Origin: a virus
Direction: 5' to 3' (one strand)
Virus record (IMG/VR): IMGVR_UViG_3300036766_001014
Location: 16,841-80,840 of that record
DNA length: 64,000 nucleotides
Positions within the stretch are counted from its first letter, which is position 1. Every line of letters starts with the position of its first letter. The position numbers and the translations under genes are program-made. The notes below the pieces were generated by a model. The model saw only the letters and a program-made list of their open reading frames with translations, was not told where the DNA came from and searched no databases. This document shows, piece after piece, positions 3,151 to 41,128 of the stretch.

Positions 3151-4095
3151 ATGCGCACGCGGACCCAAGCCACCAGCGGCCAGATGACCAGGGCTACACT
3201 CGTCGAGGCCGCCAGAGAGGCGGGCGCCGATCCGTTTCGGGTCTCTCGGGCCCTGACAGAGGCGAAAGGCAACCCGATCGAGGTGCTGAAGGCTGCTGTA
3301 ACGGCGGCCAGTTCGTTCATGACAGTCGGTCACGAGCTGAAGAAGGCCGGACTGAAATACACCTTCGGCACAGAGCCTGTACCGGCATACATGGTCACCA
3401 TCGGCGGCAAGCGCTACGGCATCGTGAATCGCAAGTATGCCGATGAGTACGACGCCCTGGTCGGCGACATTGCGCTTGGCAAGCTGACGGAGGCGAGCGG
3501 CGAGCGCGCCGAGTCGGCCTTGAGCGGCATGACTCGCGCCCGAGCCGAGACGTTCTTGCGGAAGCTGCTCTCCGAGGGGACCTCCGGAATCAAGCGGGAC
3601 AACGGATGGAGCGCCATCAACGCCATCTTCGATCGCCTGCATCGCGCTGGCATCTCGATCGAAAATCTAAAGGCCGAGTATTACAAGGTCCCGAACTCAT
3701 CAAACTTGAATGACGGCAAGCGGTGGCGCTTCGAGATCCCGTTCGCCAAGGGTGGTTGGCACGTTACCATCACGGCGTCGTTCGCGGGCTCCGCGAAGGA
3801 TCCGTCAGATGCCTACGACATCACCGTCAATCTCGACTACTCAGCGTCGATTCGCAGTGCGCAGGAGGCGAGCGGCGAGGGTGTCGAGGACGGTATCGTC
3901 GAGGACGCTAGCCACCTCCTGCACGCGCTCAGCAATGCCTCGGCTGGGTGGCACAACGTCGCCCAGCTCAGCGCCAGCTACCGTGGCCGCATGACCAGCT
4001 ATGACTGGGACGCCGCCGCCAAGACGCTTGAGCGACAGGGCAAGGCCCAGCTCCGCAAGAAAGACGGCGTCACGCAGCTGCGGATGGCCGACTAG
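3151..4095 (+). CDS. multidomain hypothetical protein, possible internal head protein
   Basis: Several small domains separated by LVE/LTE/LSE/IVE sites. Confidence 0.6.
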   Translation: MRTRTQATSGQMTRATLVEAAREAGADPFRVSRALTEAKGNPIEVLKAAVTAASSFMTVGHELKKAGLKYTFGTEPVPAYMVTIGGKRYGIVNRKYADEYDALVGDIALGKLTEASGERAESALSGMTRARAETFLRKLLSEGTSGIKRDNGWSAINAIFDRLHRAGISIENLKAEYYKVPNSSNLNDGKRWRFEIPFAKGGWHVTITASFAGSAKDPSDAYDITVNLDYSASIRSAQEASGEGVEDGIVEDASHLLHALSNASAGWHNVAQLSASYRGRMTSYDWDAAAKTLERQGKAQLRKKDGVTQLRMAD

Positions 4096-4733
4096 CCCCG
4101 CTCGCCGCGAGCGATCTTCCCGATCTTCTTGAGCGCCATCCGCTTCTCCAGCCGACTCACGCGGTCGAGCATGATCATGCCATCGAGGTGGTCAATCTCG
4201 TGCTGGACGATCCGGGCTGGCCAGCCGTCCAGCGGTCGCGCCTGCGCGTGACCTTTCAGGTCCTCGAAGACCACTGTGATGCGCTCGGACCGGGTCAGCG
4301 CCACCTTGGCCCCCGGCATGGACAAGCATGCCTCGGTCATCCGGATGAATCCGGACTCAGCTTCCACGCGAGGGTTCACCAGCACTTCGGCGGCCCCGCG
4401 CTTCTCGCCCCAGTCAGCCACGATCAACCGGCGCATGTCGCCGACCTGTGGAGCGGCCAGCCCAACGCCGCCGCACAAATACATCGTGAACAACATGTTC
4501 GTTGCCAGTGATTCCAGCTCGGAGTCGAACTCGGTGACGGCGACGCACTTCTGCTTGAGCCGAGCATCCGGGTGGAAGACAAGCGAGATCGCATGGCCGC
4601 TCCGGTAGCGCTCAGGAATGCGCTCTCGCGCCAGCTCGGCGACTCGATCGCGAGATGCCTGGAGCTGTTTGTCGGCCTCGACGACTCGTCGCCTCTCCTC
4701 CAGCTTCATCGCCTGGATGGGATCGATAGGCAT
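4092..4733 (-). CDS. def: peptide deformylase
   Basis: GVGLAAPQVG, EACLS, QHEIDHLDG motifs. Confidence 0.95.
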   Translation of the reverse strand: MPIDPIQAMKLEERRRVVEADKQLQASRDRVAELARERIPERYRSGHAISLVFHPDARLKQKCVAVTEFDSELESLATNMLFTMYLCGGVGLAAPQVGDMRRLIVADWGEKRGAAEVLVNPRVEAESGFIRMTEACLSMPGAKVALTRSERITVVFEDLKGHAQARPLDGWPARIVQHEIDHLDGMIMLDRVSRLEKRMALKKIGKIARGERG

Positions 4734-5068
4734 CAGTGCATCCTCGTGATGACCGAGTCGTTGCCGACCATTTCGGTGAGAGCATGCATCTGCTCCTCGG
4801 TCGCGCGGCGCAAGCGCATGAAGCGAATGCTCTGCGGTATGATGATCGCTTTCTGAATCCCGGCGTCTTCCAGCAGGCGTGACAAGCCTTGAAGGATGTT
4901 GCCCTGTTGGGCCGACGTCACGCCTTCGAGGTCAACCTGGACCACGGTGATCTCTCCGACCGTGCCCCTGACCCAGACCTCTGGGTCGGTCCCAGGGAGC
5001 AGCTCTCCGCCGCTCTCGCGCAGAGAAACAATCTCGTACCATTCGTCTGTCAGGTTCTTGTTGTCCAT
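4733..5068 (-). CDS. hypothetical protein
   Basis: Stop/start overlap with def. Confidence 0.6.
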   Translation of the reverse strand: MDNKNLTDEWYEIVSLRESGGELLPGTDPEVWVRGTVGEITVVQVDLEGVTSAQQGNILQGLSRLLEDAGIQKAIIIPQSIRFMRLRRATEEQMHALTEMVGNDSVITRMH

Positions 5069-5082
5069 GGCCGCCAACTGTA

Positions 5083-5562
5083 TCAGAGGGTCCGCAAGTC
5101 GCCGATAGATGGCGGGGTTGGTTCGAGTGATCGACGCAGGCTTTTGTTCAGCCGATTGCGTGTGCGACTAGAGCCGATGACCAGTAGGCCGTCCTCCGTC
5201 GGCGGCGCGGCATCCGGCCCCTCCCATGGGCCAGAGTGCGAGTAAGCGAGACAAAATTGCTTGGCCTCCTCGGCCGTGTAAACCAGGTTGTTGCGGTAGT
5301 CGATTCTGCCAAGTGCGTAGAAGACGACTCGCGTGCCACGGAAGCCGGACGACGGATCGAACACGTCGTTGCCGCGCTCCAGCCAGGCATGGCCGTACTC
5401 GATGCGCGGATGGCAGCGCAGTGTCGGTCGGCCGTGCACAACATTCCAGAGCGCGCGCTCTTTGGCCGGGATGGGCGACGACGGCAGAATCAGAGCGCTG
5501 ATCACGTCGTGGTAGCAGGTCCCGGTCAGGAGCGCGTCGGCGGGGATGGTTTTGGTGGCCAC
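5083..5562 (-). CDS. hypothetical protein, possible transglutaminase/papain-like Cys-His fold
   Basis: GTG at 5562 lies 6 nt after a promoter -10 (leaderless); TCYH...VVHG...GHAWLE pattern. Confidence 0.6.
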   Translation of the reverse strand: MATKTIPADALLTGTCYHDVISALILPSSPIPAKERALWNVVHGRPTLRCHPRIEYGHAWLERGNDVFDPSSGFRGTRVVFYALGRIDYRNNLVYTAEEAKQFCLAYSHSGPWEGPDAAPPTEDGLLVIGSSRTRNRLNKSLRRSLEPTPPSIGDLRTL

Positions 5563-5568
5563 GTCCCG

Positions 5569-5597
5569 AACATGAGGAGGTTGACAGAGTTTGTCAA
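5569..5597 (-). promoter_or_regulatory. sigma70-like promoter TTGACA-N17-CATGTT
   Basis: Minus strand CTTGACAAAC...CATGTT, then GTG 6 nt later; divergent from the 5625 promoter. Confidence 0.7.
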
Positions 5598-38196: not shown

Positions 38197-38299
38197 TCTC
38201 CGCTGGCGCACCTACGCGGCCGAAGCGGCGGCGGTTTACCCCCCTAGATCGCCTCAACATGCGGCCCGTAGGTGCGTCTTTCAATTTGGTCGATCGATC

Positions 38300-41128
38300 A
38301 TGAGGGTTCGCGTGTCCGGACTGGTCTGGGTGCCGAAGGCAGAGCTGGGAAACAGCCTGGCCCAGCTCAAGAAGGCGCTGACCATCGTGCCGAGAAAGTC
38401 GGCGTACGCGGATAGCGAGCCGCCGACGCCGGTACCGTGCTGGGCGGAGACGCTCGATGAGTTCGGGTTGCCGAGGGACTACTTTTTTGGGAGCGCCAAA
38501 CAGCAGCACGACATCGTTTGGGAGCTGTCCGAGGGCAGCCCAATATCGATCCAAAGCAACCTGCGACAGACGGGCGACTACGCCGAGCAGGCGCTCGCGC
38601 TGGATACGCTGGAGGCATGGTTTCGCGGCTTCGATACCGCGGCCGATCCTATTTCCGCCGGTCTGCATCTTGGGGCCATCCTCCAGGCTGATCCTGGATT
38701 CGGAAAGACCGCGTCCGCCCTGGAGCTGGCGCGCAGGCTCGGGCGCACGACCCTGATCATCGTCCACAAGGAGTTCTTGCTGACGCAGTGGCAGCGACGC
38801 ATCGAAGCGTTCTTTCCGGACGCCAAGATCGGAATCGTGCGAGAGGACGTGTGCGACTTCGAGGGCAAGGACATCGTGCTGGCGATGGTGCAGTCGCTGG
38901 CGCTCGAAGGGGCAGATGGCAAGCAGCGGTATCCGCTGGCGTTATACAGGCACTTCGGGCTGATCGTGATCGATGAGTGCTTCGTTGCCGGAACCATGGT
39001 CGAGACGCCCGGTGGGCCACGGCCGATAGAGGGCATTCGGCCAGGAGACGCTGTCCTAAACGCCGTGGGGCTAGGTAGCGTTGACCGGGTTACGACCAAG
39101 CGCGTCGCCGTGGACCGGCTTGTCGTGGTTCGCATTGACGACGGCAGCGAGTTCGTTTGCACGGATGAGCATCCGTGGCTGACCCCGCACGGGTGGACGA
39201 AGGCCGCAGAGCTTACTCCTGGGGACGCGCTCGTTGCATTCTCCGAGAGCACTGATACCATGTCAAGACATGGATATAGCATGCGAGGTGTGCGGGACCC
39301 CTTGCAAACCGAGGCTCGACCGGCGTCCAAGGTTCTGCTCGCAGCGATGCTGCGGGTTGGCCAAGGCGAAGCGGCAGAGGCCATGCGAGGCGTGCGGTCA
39401 AGAGGTTGCGAGGAAGGGGAATCGGTTCTGTTCCGTTGTCTGTCAGAGGAGCTGTCACCAGCGGTTCATGGGAACGCCGGAGATGCGAGCGCGGATGTCA
39501 GAGAACGCGAGGCGCCAGCACGCGAAAGACCCAGGTCTTGCAAGGAGATCGTCGGAGCGCATGGTCACGCAGAACCCAATGGCAGATCAGGCGACCAGGA
39601 GGCTTGTGTCGAGCAAGCTCAAGGCAATGAAGTATCGCCCGGTGAGCCGAGGCGGGAACGGACGCGGTCTTACGGTTCCTCAGCAAGCTCTGTTGGAGGC
39701 GCTGGGCCACGGCTGGGCGCCGGAACTGGCGGTTCCAACCAAGATGTCGCGGGGGAGCGGCTATCCGACGTCCTACAAGCTGGATTTGGGGAACACGGCG
39801 CTGAAACTCGGGATCGAGGTGGACGGGCCCTCGCACGACAGCCCGAGAGCGAGAGCGAAGGATGGGAAAAAGAGCGCACTGCTGGCCACGCTCGGGTGGC
39901 GAGTGTTGCGCGTGCGGAACGAAGCGATCTTGAGCGACGCGGCATCCGCGTTGGCGACGATTCGCGTGTGGATGTCTTCAACCTGAGCGTCTCTGGCCAT
40001 CCGTCGTATGTGTTGGCGAATGGCTTGGTGGTGCACAACTGTCACCGCATCGGGGCTCTCACGTGGAGCCAGGTGCCGAAGATGTTCTCGGCGAAGTGGT
40101 TGCTCGGACTGACCGCGACGCCGAGGCGCAGAGATGGAGCGGACAAGGTGTTCTGGTGGAACATCGGCCAGATCCGGTACGCGGCCAAGACCAAGCGGCC
40201 GGTCCTCAGCGTGCGCATGGTGATGGCGAACGTATCGGGCCCGGACATCCTGCGCAGGGACGTCTCGCCGAGCATCATCGTCAACGTCCTGGCCAAGCTG
40301 TCTGGGCGCAACCGGATCATTGTGCAGGAGATCATCGGAGCGCTGAAGTCGCCGTCCGGGCGCAAGATCATGGTGCTGAGCGAGCGGCTCGAACATCTCC
40401 GTGAGCTTGACTCATTGCTGCGACAGGAAGCGGACAGGGCTGGGATCGAGGTCTCAACCGGGTTCTACACGGGCGAGTGGTTCACCGGCGATCGCAGCGA
40501 GAAGCTCGCGCAAGGCCACTGGGACATGAACAACGGCGGTCGCAAGAAGGCGGAGGACGCAATCTACACGTCTCTCTCCAGGCGGAAGCTGGAGTCAGAC
40601 GAGGCCAGGGCCGTGGACAAGGATCAGGACGGGACGAAAGTGATCGTCTTCAACGGCGGCGAACGGGTGCCGCTGAGCGACTTGCCCGAGCAGGCGCTGT
40701 ATTCCCTCGCGCGCAGCTATGACATCAAGCAGAAGGTGACCGAGAAGAAGCGTCGCAGGACCGAGGAGGAGCTGGCCGAGGCTGAGCGAGCCCGCGTGAT
40801 CTGGGCTACGTATCAGATGACTTCTGAAGGTATCGACATCCCGGCGGTGGACACGATCGGATTCGCGACGCCAATCAGCGACGTCGAGCAGTCATACGGC
40901 CGCGGTCGGCGCGTCTGCGTGCCCGTGGCGCACGGCGGCGACAAGACTCCGGAGGCATGTACGCGACTGTGTTCTTGGCGGGCGGCGACCTGCACCGGTA
41001 AGCCGGTTGGAATGGCATTTGACGTGGTAGACGTACAAGTCCCGCTCGCGACCAGGCGCAGCAAGTACCGGCGGGAGTTTTACGAGAGCGTAGGGGCTCG
41101 CGTCGTAGATATTGACACTCGCAAATAA
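38300..41128 (+). CDS. SF2 DExH helicase (UvsW/Rad25-like) with intein
   Basis: PGFGKT; IVIDE[intein]CH; GLTATPRR.DG; EGIDIP; QSYGRGRR. Confidence 0.9.
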   Translation: MRVRVSGLVWVPKAELGNSLAQLKKALTIVPRKSAYADSEPPTPVPCWAETLDEFGLPRDYFFGSAKQQHDIVWELSEGSPISIQSNLRQTGDYAEQALALDTLEAWFRGFDTAADPISAGLHLGAILQADPGFGKTASALELARRLGRTTLIIVHKEFLLTQWQRRIEAFFPDAKIGIVREDVCDFEGKDIVLAMVQSLALEGADGKQRYPLALYRHFGLIVIDECFVAGTMVETPGGPRPIEGIRPGDAVLNAVGLGSVDRVTTKRVAVDRLVVVRIDDGSEFVCTDEHPWLTPHGWTKAAELTPGDALVAFSESTDTMSRHGYSMRGVRDPLQTEARPASKVLLAAMLRVGQGEAAEAMRGVRSRGCEEGESVLFRCLSEELSPAVHGNAGDASADVREREAPARERPRSCKEIVGAHGHAEPNGRSGDQEACVEQAQGNEVSPGEPRRERTRSYGSSASSVGGAGPRLGAGTGGSNQDVAGERLSDVLQAGFGEHGAETRDRGGRALARQPESESEGWEKERTAGHARVASVARAERSDLERRGIRVGDDSRVDVFNLSVSGHPSYVLANGLVVHNCHRIGALTWSQVPKMFSAKWLLGLTATPRRRDGADKVFWWNIGQIRYAAKTKRPVLSVRMVMANVSGPDILRRDVSPSIIVNVLAKLSGRNRIIVQEIIGALKSPSGRKIMVLSERLEHLRELDSLLRQEADRAGIEVSTGFYTGEWFTGDRSEKLAQGHWDMNNGGRKKAEDAIYTSLSRRKLESDEARAVDKDQDGTKVIVFNGGERVPLSDLPEQALYSLARSYDIKQKVTEKKRRRTEEELAEAERARVIWATYQMTSEGIDIPAVDTIGFATPISDVEQSYGRGRRVCVPVAHGGDKTPEACTRLCSWRAATCTGKPVGMAFDVVDVQVPLATRRSKYRREFYESVGARVVDIDTRK
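39234..39261 (+). promoter_or_regulatory. putative internal promoter TTGCAT-N16-TACCAT (TGn extended)
   Basis: ATG 39270 is 8 nt downstream, the same leaderless geometry as other promoters here. Confidence 0.5.
39270..39986 (+). CDS. overprinted Zn-finger plus DUF559/Vsr-like endonuclease (+1 frame inside the intein)
   Basis: CEVCG..RFCSQRC, CEACG..RFCSVVC; YKLDLG...IEVDGPSH...GWRVLRVRN; GC-rich third positions in this frame. Confidence 0.85.
   Translation: MDIACEVCGTPCKPRLDRRPRFCSQRCCGLAKAKRQRPCEACGQEVARKGNRFCSVVCQRSCHQRFMGTPEMRARMSENARRQHAKDPGLARRSSERMVTQNPMADQATRRLVSSKLKAMKYRPVSRGGNGRGLTVPQQALLEALGHGWAPELAVPTKMSRGSGYPTSYKLDLGNTALKLGIEVDGPSHDSPRARAKDGKKSALLATLGWRVLRVRNEAILSDAASALATIRVWMSST

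Follow-up and report, generated by a model that had tools for sequence, protein, structure and literature searches.

Inteins normally hold their homing endonuclease in frame. This premise of an earlier reading of the locus described here (the original prediction) is correct, and exceptions to it are in print. The locus lies in a 64,000-nucleotide stretch of DNA, hereafter the window, which is part of the 80,840-base IMG/VR virus record IMGVR_UViG_3300036766_001014 (positions 16,841 to 80,840), a metagenome-assembled viral contig. It comprises an intein within a helicase gene and a nuclease open reading frame (ORF) overlapping this intein in the +1 frame. The closest described systems are summarized first. 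Gosselin, Arsenault and Gogarten (2025; bioRxiv 10.1101/2025.01.02.630785) described actinophage inteins with the endonuclease outside the intein frame, as antisense LAGLIDADG, antisense VSR-like or same-strand frame-3 endonuclease VII-like ORFs in genes for DNA polymerase, minor capsid protein, terminase and thymidylate synthase. They noted that annotation pipelines miss such ORFs, and proposed that a free-standing endonuclease gene invades a mini-intein. Phillips, DeSimone and Gogarten (bioRxiv 10.64898/2026.09.14.751524) reported a cyanobacterial dnaX intein with an out-of-frame LAGLIDADG endonuclease, together with a putative Shine-Dalgarno (SD) site and the idea of secondary invasion. Dassa et al. 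(2009; PMC2677866) found inteins that are split, with a free-standing gene for a Vsr-like endonuclease lying between the two parts; according to these authors, no Vsr-like domains were known in inteins. The prototype of the EDxHD homing endonucleases, with a structure in PDB entry 3r3p, is I-Bth0305I (Taylor et al. 2011; PMC3239194). Finally, the ShiLan insertion conceals an endonuclease of the HNH type, read out of frame, within a phage methylase (Arsenault et al. 2025; PMC11855218), and this is probably the alternate-frame case to which the original prediction alluded.

The window locus is very probably a mobile class-1 intein that works as two overlapping genes, namely a Hint splicing domain and a separate homing-type nuclease in the +1 frame. 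In a canonical bifunctional intein the endonuclease is part of the intein polypeptide; here the nuclease is read in the +1 frame, from an ATG of its own to its own TGA, and the locus has the features that Gosselin et al. (2025) set out for a non-canonical intein with an out-of-frame endonuclease ORF. Like the inteins of these authors, it is contiguous and has a stop-free, structureless middle and a well-folding, separate, overlapping endonuclease ORF. Unlike them, it carries this ORF on the same strand in the +1 frame, with a Vsr-like nuclease that has zinc fingers and with a DExH helicase as host, and its family extends well past the actinophages, to Vibrio, Pseudomonas and Corynebacterium phages as well as metagenome-assembled genomes (MAGs) labelled with many phyla. 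With the dnaX intein it shares an overlapping ORF in a disordered middle and frame-specific purifying selection, whereas the dnaX case concerns a LAGLIDADG enzyme, a frame named '+2ORF' and a cellular host gene. The fractured genes of Dassa et al. resemble it in the Vsr-like superfamily of the nuclease, in phage targets among nucleoside triphosphatases (NTPases) and DNA metabolism, and in the overlap of the endonuclease 3' end with the downstream intein part; moreover, the best structural match of the window Hint domain is the gp41-1 intein of that study. In contrast to these fractured genes, which consist of two ORFs, the window intein is spanned by a single 942-aa ORF, and splicing in cis is predicted. 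I-Bth0305I is bipartite in a similar way, with DNA binding assigned to the N-terminal part and a Vsr-like catalytic domain at the C-terminus, and it too has acidic and His residues that are conserved, but it is encoded within recA, in a group I intron, and bears NUMOD motifs instead of CxxC zinc fingers. The ShiLan insertion resembles the window intein in that stops are absent from the host frame although the actual product is an endonuclease read out of frame; that insertion has an HNH nuclease and no splicing domain, while the window ORF is flanked by an intact Hint domain. The novelty of the arrangement had thus been overrated in the original prediction, since out-of-frame and antisense intein endonucleases are described in the two preprints. 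The general layout is already known, and what appear to be new are the nuclease type, the frame, the host gene and the finding that the overprint is the rule in the family. A full-text literature search, which covered few subscription journals and no preprint supplements, retrieved no description of a helicase intein with a Vsr-like ORF on the same strand.

The host gene (positions 38300 to 41128 of the window; this and the features below are on the plus strand unless stated otherwise) encodes a 942-aa precursor of a superfamily 2 (SF2) helicase of the ResIII/DEAD-like type, as judged from the ORF, from Pfam ResIII (E 5.3e-18) and from the PHROG DNA helicase family phrog_16 (E 6.2e-29). A match to Pfam Helicase_C is weak (19.2 bits) and under the cut-off. 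The gene is split by the intein in motif II, between DE and CH, so that in the translation and the junction listing the N-extein (38300 to 38977) ends with the residues VIDE, and the C-extein (40040 to 41128) resumes the motif with CHRIG. In between, 354 codons (38978 to 40039; 1,062 bp) lead without a stop in the helicase frame from CFVAGT to VVHN, which is followed by CHR. The class-1 splicing residues Cys1, T62-x-x-H65, H353-N354 and Cys+1 are all present; among 38 homologues C1, H65 and N354 are invariant and H353 is nearly so. Pfam Hint_2 matches the intein with 31.9 bits (cut-off 28.4), and Pfam Intein_splicing stays under its cut-off. Locus L075, a syntenic orthologue with 43% identity, has no intein and reads DEVH at the homologous site, which identifies the intein as an insertion. 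At the DNA level, a search of the phage collection with the helicase gene at blastn sensitivity gave no match, and searches at the protein level were required. A search with the C-extein returned only two close relatives and the 43%-identical intein-less orthologue, with no close empty allele, and none of the contigs from four DNA runs joins DE to CH without the intein, which is not evidence that empty alleles are absent.

An AlphaFold model of the intein, built with the 38 homologues, separates two confident ends from a middle that is predicted to be disordered. The N-terminal Hint subdomain (38978 to 39256, up to about residue 93 of the intein) was delimited by pLDDT (predicted local distance difference test), with block means of 88-98 over residues 1-90. 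The linker (residues about 94-300, some 205 codons; 39257 to 39877) has block means of only 36-54 over residues 91-300, low identity among homologues, no stop and no domain match in the helicase frame. The C-terminal Hint subdomain (residues about 301-354; 39878 to 40039), which ends in VVHN and coincides with a conserved alignment block, again reaches 89-97. When the ends of the model were submitted to Foldseek, 31 matches had E<=0.001; those listed are all inteins or Hint domains, with gp41-1 as the best (E 2.4e-6). From the intact motifs and the need for a working helicase, we infer that this class-1 intein splices. The original prediction had described intact splicing blocks around a stop-free, featureless central region, which agrees with these data, and its coordinates and motifs for the helicase ORF, the intein and the +1 ORF were all found to be correct in the ORF list and translations.

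The overlapping +1 frame contains an ORF of 238 codons with its own ATG and TGA (39270 to 39986), and an alternative in-frame TTG start is located at 39234. Based on its Pfam match and AlphaFold model, it is a putative homing endonuclease gene of the Vsr/DUF559 type (EDxHD-like). The product combines a pair of zinc fingers (CxxC...FCSxxC, twice) with a helical region and a nuclease domain of the Vsr/DUF559 type, and it contains the motifs IEVDGPSH and GWRVLRVRN. DUF559 (PF04480) matches residues 168-232 with E 2.2e-9 and 37.6 bits, against a gathering cut-off of 20.6, and the structural model has a mean pLDDT of 89.7. In the underlying alignment of 36 sequences, 15 columns are invariant and another 15 nearly invariant. 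The two CxxC...CSxxC zinc-finger modules (residues 5-58; 39282 to 39443) presumably bind DNA; they were recognized in the sequence and by a match of residues 3-72 to phrog_1271, an HNH endonuclease family of PHROG (E 1.9e-6). Residues C39, C42, C54 and C58 are conserved in the alignment, and the first finger is missing from some relatives.

The Vsr-like domain itself (residues 130-238; 39657 to 39983) was defined by structure and profile matches. In VIA-align comparisons its best counterparts were the DUF559 structure 3hrl (Z 12.7, root-mean-square deviation 1.4, 86 residues aligned), I-Bth0305I (3r3p; Z 12.3, deviation 2.6, 90 aligned) and Vsr (1cw0, Z 10.8; 1vsr, Z 10.2). Foldseek ranked the same entries at the top with weak E-values (1.8e-3 to 9e-2), and a profile search against the PDB gave E 3.4e-12 for 3hrl and 5.7e-4 for 3r3p. 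The candidate catalytic residues are D172, E183, D185, H189 and D198, of which D185 is nearly invariant and the others are invariant in the 36 sequences; the alignment with 3r3p gives no one-to-one mapping of the EDxHD motif. The DUF559/Vsr-like assignment of the original prediction is therefore well founded, and searches of both frames with hidden Markov models place Hint_2 in the helicase frame and DUF559 in the +1 frame, each over its cut-off. At its 3' end the nuclease ORF runs into the confident C-terminal Hint part (from about residue 301, nucleotide 39878). The overlap had been anticipated at about 30 codons, and by the intein model it amounts to about 36.

Several lines of sequence evidence indicate that the double coding is real and is maintained by selection. 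The nuclease ORF was resampled synonymously in 5000 trials, with codons drawn from the extein usage of each locus. In the window, the helicase frame has no stops where a mean of 6.0 was expected, and only 6 of the 5000 resamplings were stop-free (P 0.0012). For four divergent relatives in cultured phages the mean expectations were 6.0, 18.6, 15.1 and 18.7 stops, and 4, 0, 0 and 0 resamplings, respectively, were stop-free. All five divergent loci tested thus lack helicase-frame stops, while the third frame holds five real stops in the window and 5-22 over the five loci. The same avoidance is visible at single codons. Across 52 overprinted loci, two-fold C/T codons at which T would create a helicase-frame stop have C in 394 cases and T in none, as compared to T at 869 of the 1619 remaining C/T two-fold sites of these ORFs. 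In two free-standing nuclease relatives, T occupies 39 of 43 such stop-creating sites. The +1 frame is marked by its composition as well: the GC content at third codon positions (GC3) of the overlap reaches 0.757 when this is read in the +1 frame, as compared to 0.561 when it is read in the helicase frame and 0.81-0.82 for the exteins. The GC3 is genome-like only in the +1 frame, as the original prediction had noted, and we count this in favour of selection on that frame.

At the protein level, the +1 translations of the overlap are more alike (identity 0.396 over 630 pairs) than those of the helicase frame (0.207), for which the value equals that of the non-coding third frame (0.210). The +1 frame was higher in 629 of the 630 pairs, in an alignment that was built on the +1 proteins from loci that are not independent. 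The helicase-frame linker has one invariant column, Gln267, next to a nearly invariant Leu266, and this Gln267 is the shadow of a conserved Tyr-Lys of the nuclease (Y169 is nearly invariant). These comparisons indicate that the linker needs only to be stop-free, and that only the +1 frame is conserved as a protein. Within the C-terminal Hint overlap, identities of 0.364 (+1), 0.242 (helicase frame) and 0.258 (third frame) reveal no extra helicase-frame constraint, which says little given the +1-built alignment and the variable offsets of the Hint blocks. In 17 of 43 distinct inteins (for example L001, L013, L020, L025 and L026) the nuclease stop ends 8 nt before the last base of the intein. 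It is then made up from the codons of the conserved hydrophobic pair before His-Asn, so that the whole C-terminal Hint part is double-coded.

The divergence from the close relatives carries a signature of recent transfer. Compared to L074, differences number 46 over the 1062 nt of the intein and 224 over the 1764 nt of the exteins (P 2e-14), as would be seen if the intein were younger than its exteins; the trough of divergence coincides with the intein, and the single-coded N-terminal Hint part is also less divergent than the N-extein (12 of 292 against 79 of 678; P 1e-4). Compared to L073, only 4 differences were found in the 1500 nt from 38250 to 39749, with 10-29 per 250 nt in the flanks on both sides and a return to background between about 39750 and 40250. 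A near-identity tract of roughly 2 kb (38250 to 40250) thereby covers the N-extein and the intein in a pair that is otherwise 4-10% different. This tract is the result of a recent recombination or conversion event that carried the N-extein and the intein and has its right edge at the 3' end of the intein. Homing with co-conversion would leave such a tract, as ordinary phage recombination also might. The assembly is supported by an independent metagenome contig from another sample, which spans the gene in full and differs from it by 59 substitutions, without gaps.

The layout is not peculiar to the window. A tblastn search of phage genomes with the nuclease gave 40 records, and among the matches listed all 30 lay under an annotated coding sequence (CDS) of the helicase type. 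In each of the four GenBank records of cultured phages that were opened, the nuclease match is in the +1 frame relative to the helicase CDS and the nuclease ORF is not annotated. The original prediction that gene callers would miss the ORF holds for these four records, and fails for one MAG annotation in which a homologous overprinted ORF was called. For a systematic view we assembled 70 viral loci: 65 from a profile scan of IMG/VR, four from GenBank and the window. In 66 of them, a stop-free ORF of 569-2199 codons (stop to stop) passes through the nuclease match, with the nuclease in the +1 frame. After de-duplication 57 of 60 viral loci are overprinted, and 55 of these 57 have an intact nuclease ORF; one of the intact ones, L069, has stops upstream of its ATG. 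A second set consisted of contigs from one genome per bacterial species. It contained 78 loci, 34 of them with a match of at least 120 aa, and 29 of these 34 are overprinted with an open helicase frame. The overprint is therefore the usual state of the nuclease family in the loci examined, and in-frame, split and free-standing forms are rare.

The host genes at nine loci tested include ResIII/DEAD, SNF2 and XPD-like helicases, a clamp-loader AAA+ protein and a terminase large subunit. Nuclease and Hint domain were found together in at least five NTPase gene families, always at the Walker-B DE site, and nearly all intein junctions read DE|C...HN|C or HN|S. In the DNA flanking 41 insertion sites, conservation is confined to the codons GAYGAR|TGYCAY, and no wider target motif was found around them.

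How the nuclease is expressed may differ between lineages. Among the 15 sequencing runs listed for the stretch, none is an RNA run. In the window, a promoter-like sequence, TTGCAT-N16-TACCAT (39234 to 39261), lies 8 nt before the nuclease ATG and is, by its geometry, a candidate leaderless promoter. As written, it occurs once in the window, with 0.21 occurrences expected and 19 of 100 shuffled sequences reaching one. A scan for TTGnnn-N15-18-TAnnnT-N5-10-ATG/GTG yielded eight matches on the coding strand and one, without an ORF, on the opposite strand. Six of the eight start ORFs of at least 80 codons with a GC3 of at least 0.70 (12833, 14371, 31085, 39270, 46899 and 52628), as compared to a mean of 0.19 and a maximum of one such start in first-order Markov sequences. 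The five ORFs other than the nuclease begin 6-9 nt after TTGACA/TTGAAA-N16-18-TAnnnT, and four of the six promoter-like units have an exact TTGACA. The -10 region of the nuclease motif resembles those of 46899 and 52628, with which it has TACC(A/G)T in common, and the motif is kept in both close relatives, where the two changes are in the spacer. These regularities suggest that the phage uses sigma-70-like promoters that yield leaderless mRNAs. That the window nuclease itself is transcribed from the internal promoter as a leaderless mRNA is plausible, at what we would call a little under an even chance.

For many relatives, internal initiation at an SD site is the likelier route. SD-like sites of at least 5 nt, located 3-20 nt upstream of the start, were found at 18 of 54 loci against 8.8% in the control (binomial P 4e-7), for starts that were rule-defined on the +1 proteins of loci that are not independent. 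At many loci, a +1-frame stop moreover lies 0-5 codons before the inferred nuclease start, which argues for independent initiation and against a frameshift fusion. The decoupling of splicing and homing that the original prediction had proposed is strongly supported, at the protein level, by the separate +1 ORF in the window and across about 90 related loci. The only site listed by a consensus promoter scan is a promoter-like TTGACA-17-GAGAAT on the minus strand (39266 to 39238), which overlaps the nuclease start region and is at the level expected by chance (1 against 0.7).

In the mechanism that we propose, the helicase frame would be translated through the intein, giving two Hint halves joined by a floppy linker of about 205 residues, and the intein would splice out of the precursor in cis to restore the helicase. 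From its own ATG to its TGA, the +1 frame would yield a free-standing 238-aa protein, most likely a homing endonuclease. During co-infection this enzyme would cut intein-less helicase alleles at the site coding for DE/xH, and repair would copy the intein together with the nuclease gene into the cut allele.

Several observations weigh against this reading, besides the +1-based alignment, the rule-defined starts and the non-independent loci mentioned above. Compared to a relative with 93% identity, the overlap has 27 substitutions, whose distribution gives the +1 frame no advantage: 10 are synonymous and 17 non-synonymous in that frame, 13 and 14 in the helicase frame, and 12 fall at +1 second positions. 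Recent constraint on the window copy of the nuclease is thus not demonstrated. The frame-specific substitution analysis envisaged in the original prediction did not separate the frames among close relatives, between which the substitutions are too few, whereas the deep comparison of 630 pairs favours the +1 frame. The low divergence of the intein could in part be due to dual-coding constraint rather than to transfer. As to expression, the original prediction of an own leaderless promoter stands with respect to the motif, the 8-nt spacing and a geometry that recurs at five other ORF starts, but the motif fits the sigma-70 consensus at only 7 of 12 positions and was not listed by a consensus scan; in addition, no SD-like site is present upstream of the nuclease start in the window lineage. 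Finally, at the two independent loci L010 and L048 the helicase frame is open, but the zinc finger of the nuclease is interrupted by a premature TAA. This TAA lies between CxxC and CSxxC (L010:3528, also in L080 and L081; L048:3555), and the two loci may represent decaying endonucleases or users of a downstream start. As a rival explanation, the +1 ORF might be a decaying relic of an endonuclease gene that once invaded a mini-intein, neither expressed nor active any more, so that only the open helicase frame matters. The lack of excess +1-synonymous change at close range, the missing SD-like site and the two premature stops fit this explanation, as does the known decay of homing endonucleases after fixation (PMC13619312). 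However, the ORF is intact in the window, in both close relatives (where +1-frame stops would have counted against the original prediction) and in nearly all distinct overprinted viral loci. None of the conserved Cys, Asp, Glu and His columns has been lost, the fold is predicted with high confidence, the GC3 is genome-like in the +1 frame and a recent conversion tract surrounds the intein. We therefore consider a relic improbable.

An active nuclease might alternatively serve a role other than homing, such as cutting the DNA of competing phages or the host, or marker exclusion. Function is indeed deduced from family and position only, domains of the DUF559/Vsr-like kind are also part of ordinary cellular proteins (some 45 short matches to DUF559 alone came from Alphaproteobacteria and other genomes), and one free-standing relative is located just upstream of a helicase gene and not inside it. 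The repeated association of nuclease and Hint domain at Walker-B DE sites of different NTPases argues against such a role, and so do the transfer signature centred on the intein and the fact that, by name, the nearest relative with a solved structure is an enzyme whose homing endonuclease function is proven (PMC3239194). A non-homing function is therefore quite unlikely. Programmed +1 ribosomal frameshifting could instead produce a fusion of N-extein, N-terminal Hint part and nuclease without a start codon of its own. Such a fusion would fit the window in that 29 codons of open +1 frame precede the ATG (stop to stop from 39183) and that, as stated, an SD-like site is missing. On the other hand, L002, L043, L059, L062, L066, L069 and others have a +1 stop 0-5 codons before the start, too close to it for a shift site to fit in between; the inferred starts are preceded by SD-like sites more often than control positions, and split and free-standing relatives start at the homologous Met. 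On these grounds a frameshift fusion is very unlikely and was rejected. The frame offset could lastly be an assembly or sequencing artefact in an ordinary in-frame endonuclease intein, given that the window is a metagenome-assembled contig and that in-frame relatives exist (L033 and probably L131). This explanation, to which we assign next to no probability, is refuted by the same offset, with own start and stop, in GenBank genomes of cultured phages and dozens of independent assemblies, by the independent contig without an indel over the whole gene, and by the stop avoidance, since an artefact would not clear every helicase-frame stop.

With two overlapping genes as the preferred reading, a wider scenario can be tentatively drawn, for which our confidence falls slightly short of one half. 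In this Vsr-like intein lineage the overprint would be a stable, dominant design and not a passing accident. Among phages of many bacterial phyla, one unit of Hint domain and nuclease would have moved from one Walker-B DE site to another, in helicases of the SF2, SNF2 and XPD-like types as well as in clamp loaders and terminases; forms that are fused in frame, split or free-standing would be its rare derivatives, and the window nuclease would have gained a leaderless promoter. If so, one clade would comprise every step of the route proposed for the gain of endonucleases by inteins and for the origin of split inteins, and with a leaderless promoter of its own the nuclease could be timed and dosed independently of the helicase. 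Apart from this scenario, the sequence statistics of the window strongly show that the coupling of an intein to its homing endonuclease can exist at the DNA level only, with a splicing protein that needs no more than a stop-free linker and a nuclease that is a separate protein. Because the overprint is usual in the loci examined and the ORF is not annotated in the four GenBank phage records, surveys that score such elements as mini-inteins or decaying inteins are expected to undercount active endonucleases. The occurrence of overprinted, in-frame, split and free-standing forms in one nuclease clade also makes the model in which the splicing domain came first and the endonuclease invaded later, as well as the origin of split inteins, testable by phylogeny. 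The same models are accessible at the bench in the cultured phages Vibrio CP-T1, Pseudomonas MR14 and Corynebacterium phi673. The combination of zinc fingers and a Vsr-like nuclease would represent an uncharacterised homing endonuclease architecture, with a defined, highly conserved site as its predicted target.

The few loci that deviate from the overprint are of several kinds. The remaining three of the 60 distinct viral loci comprise one in-frame case (L033) and two that are free-standing or split (L050 and L054). L033 (2592-5690) is a UvrD-like helicase intein (DE|CLPY...VHN|CQD) with the Vsr/DUF559 domain fused in frame, without zinc fingers (DUF559 E 1.5e-10). In the genome set, L097 is free-standing, three loci are ordinary short DUF559 ORFs, and L131, on a contig labelled Nitrosotalea, has the nuclease in the same frame within a 712-codon ORF and is probably an in-frame relative. 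L054 (2504-4912; also L056) is a fractured gene, in which the ORFs for N-extein plus N-intein, nuclease, and C-intein plus C-extein overlap by 104 and 121 nt. At L050 (3453-5584), a free-standing nuclease relative with a strong AGGAGG site lies directly upstream of an intein-less helicase gene. This helicase consists of two ORFs that overlap (4060-4431 and 4394-5584), with the break located exactly at the DE/HH motif, and it could be a frameshift, an assembly error or a target-site scar.

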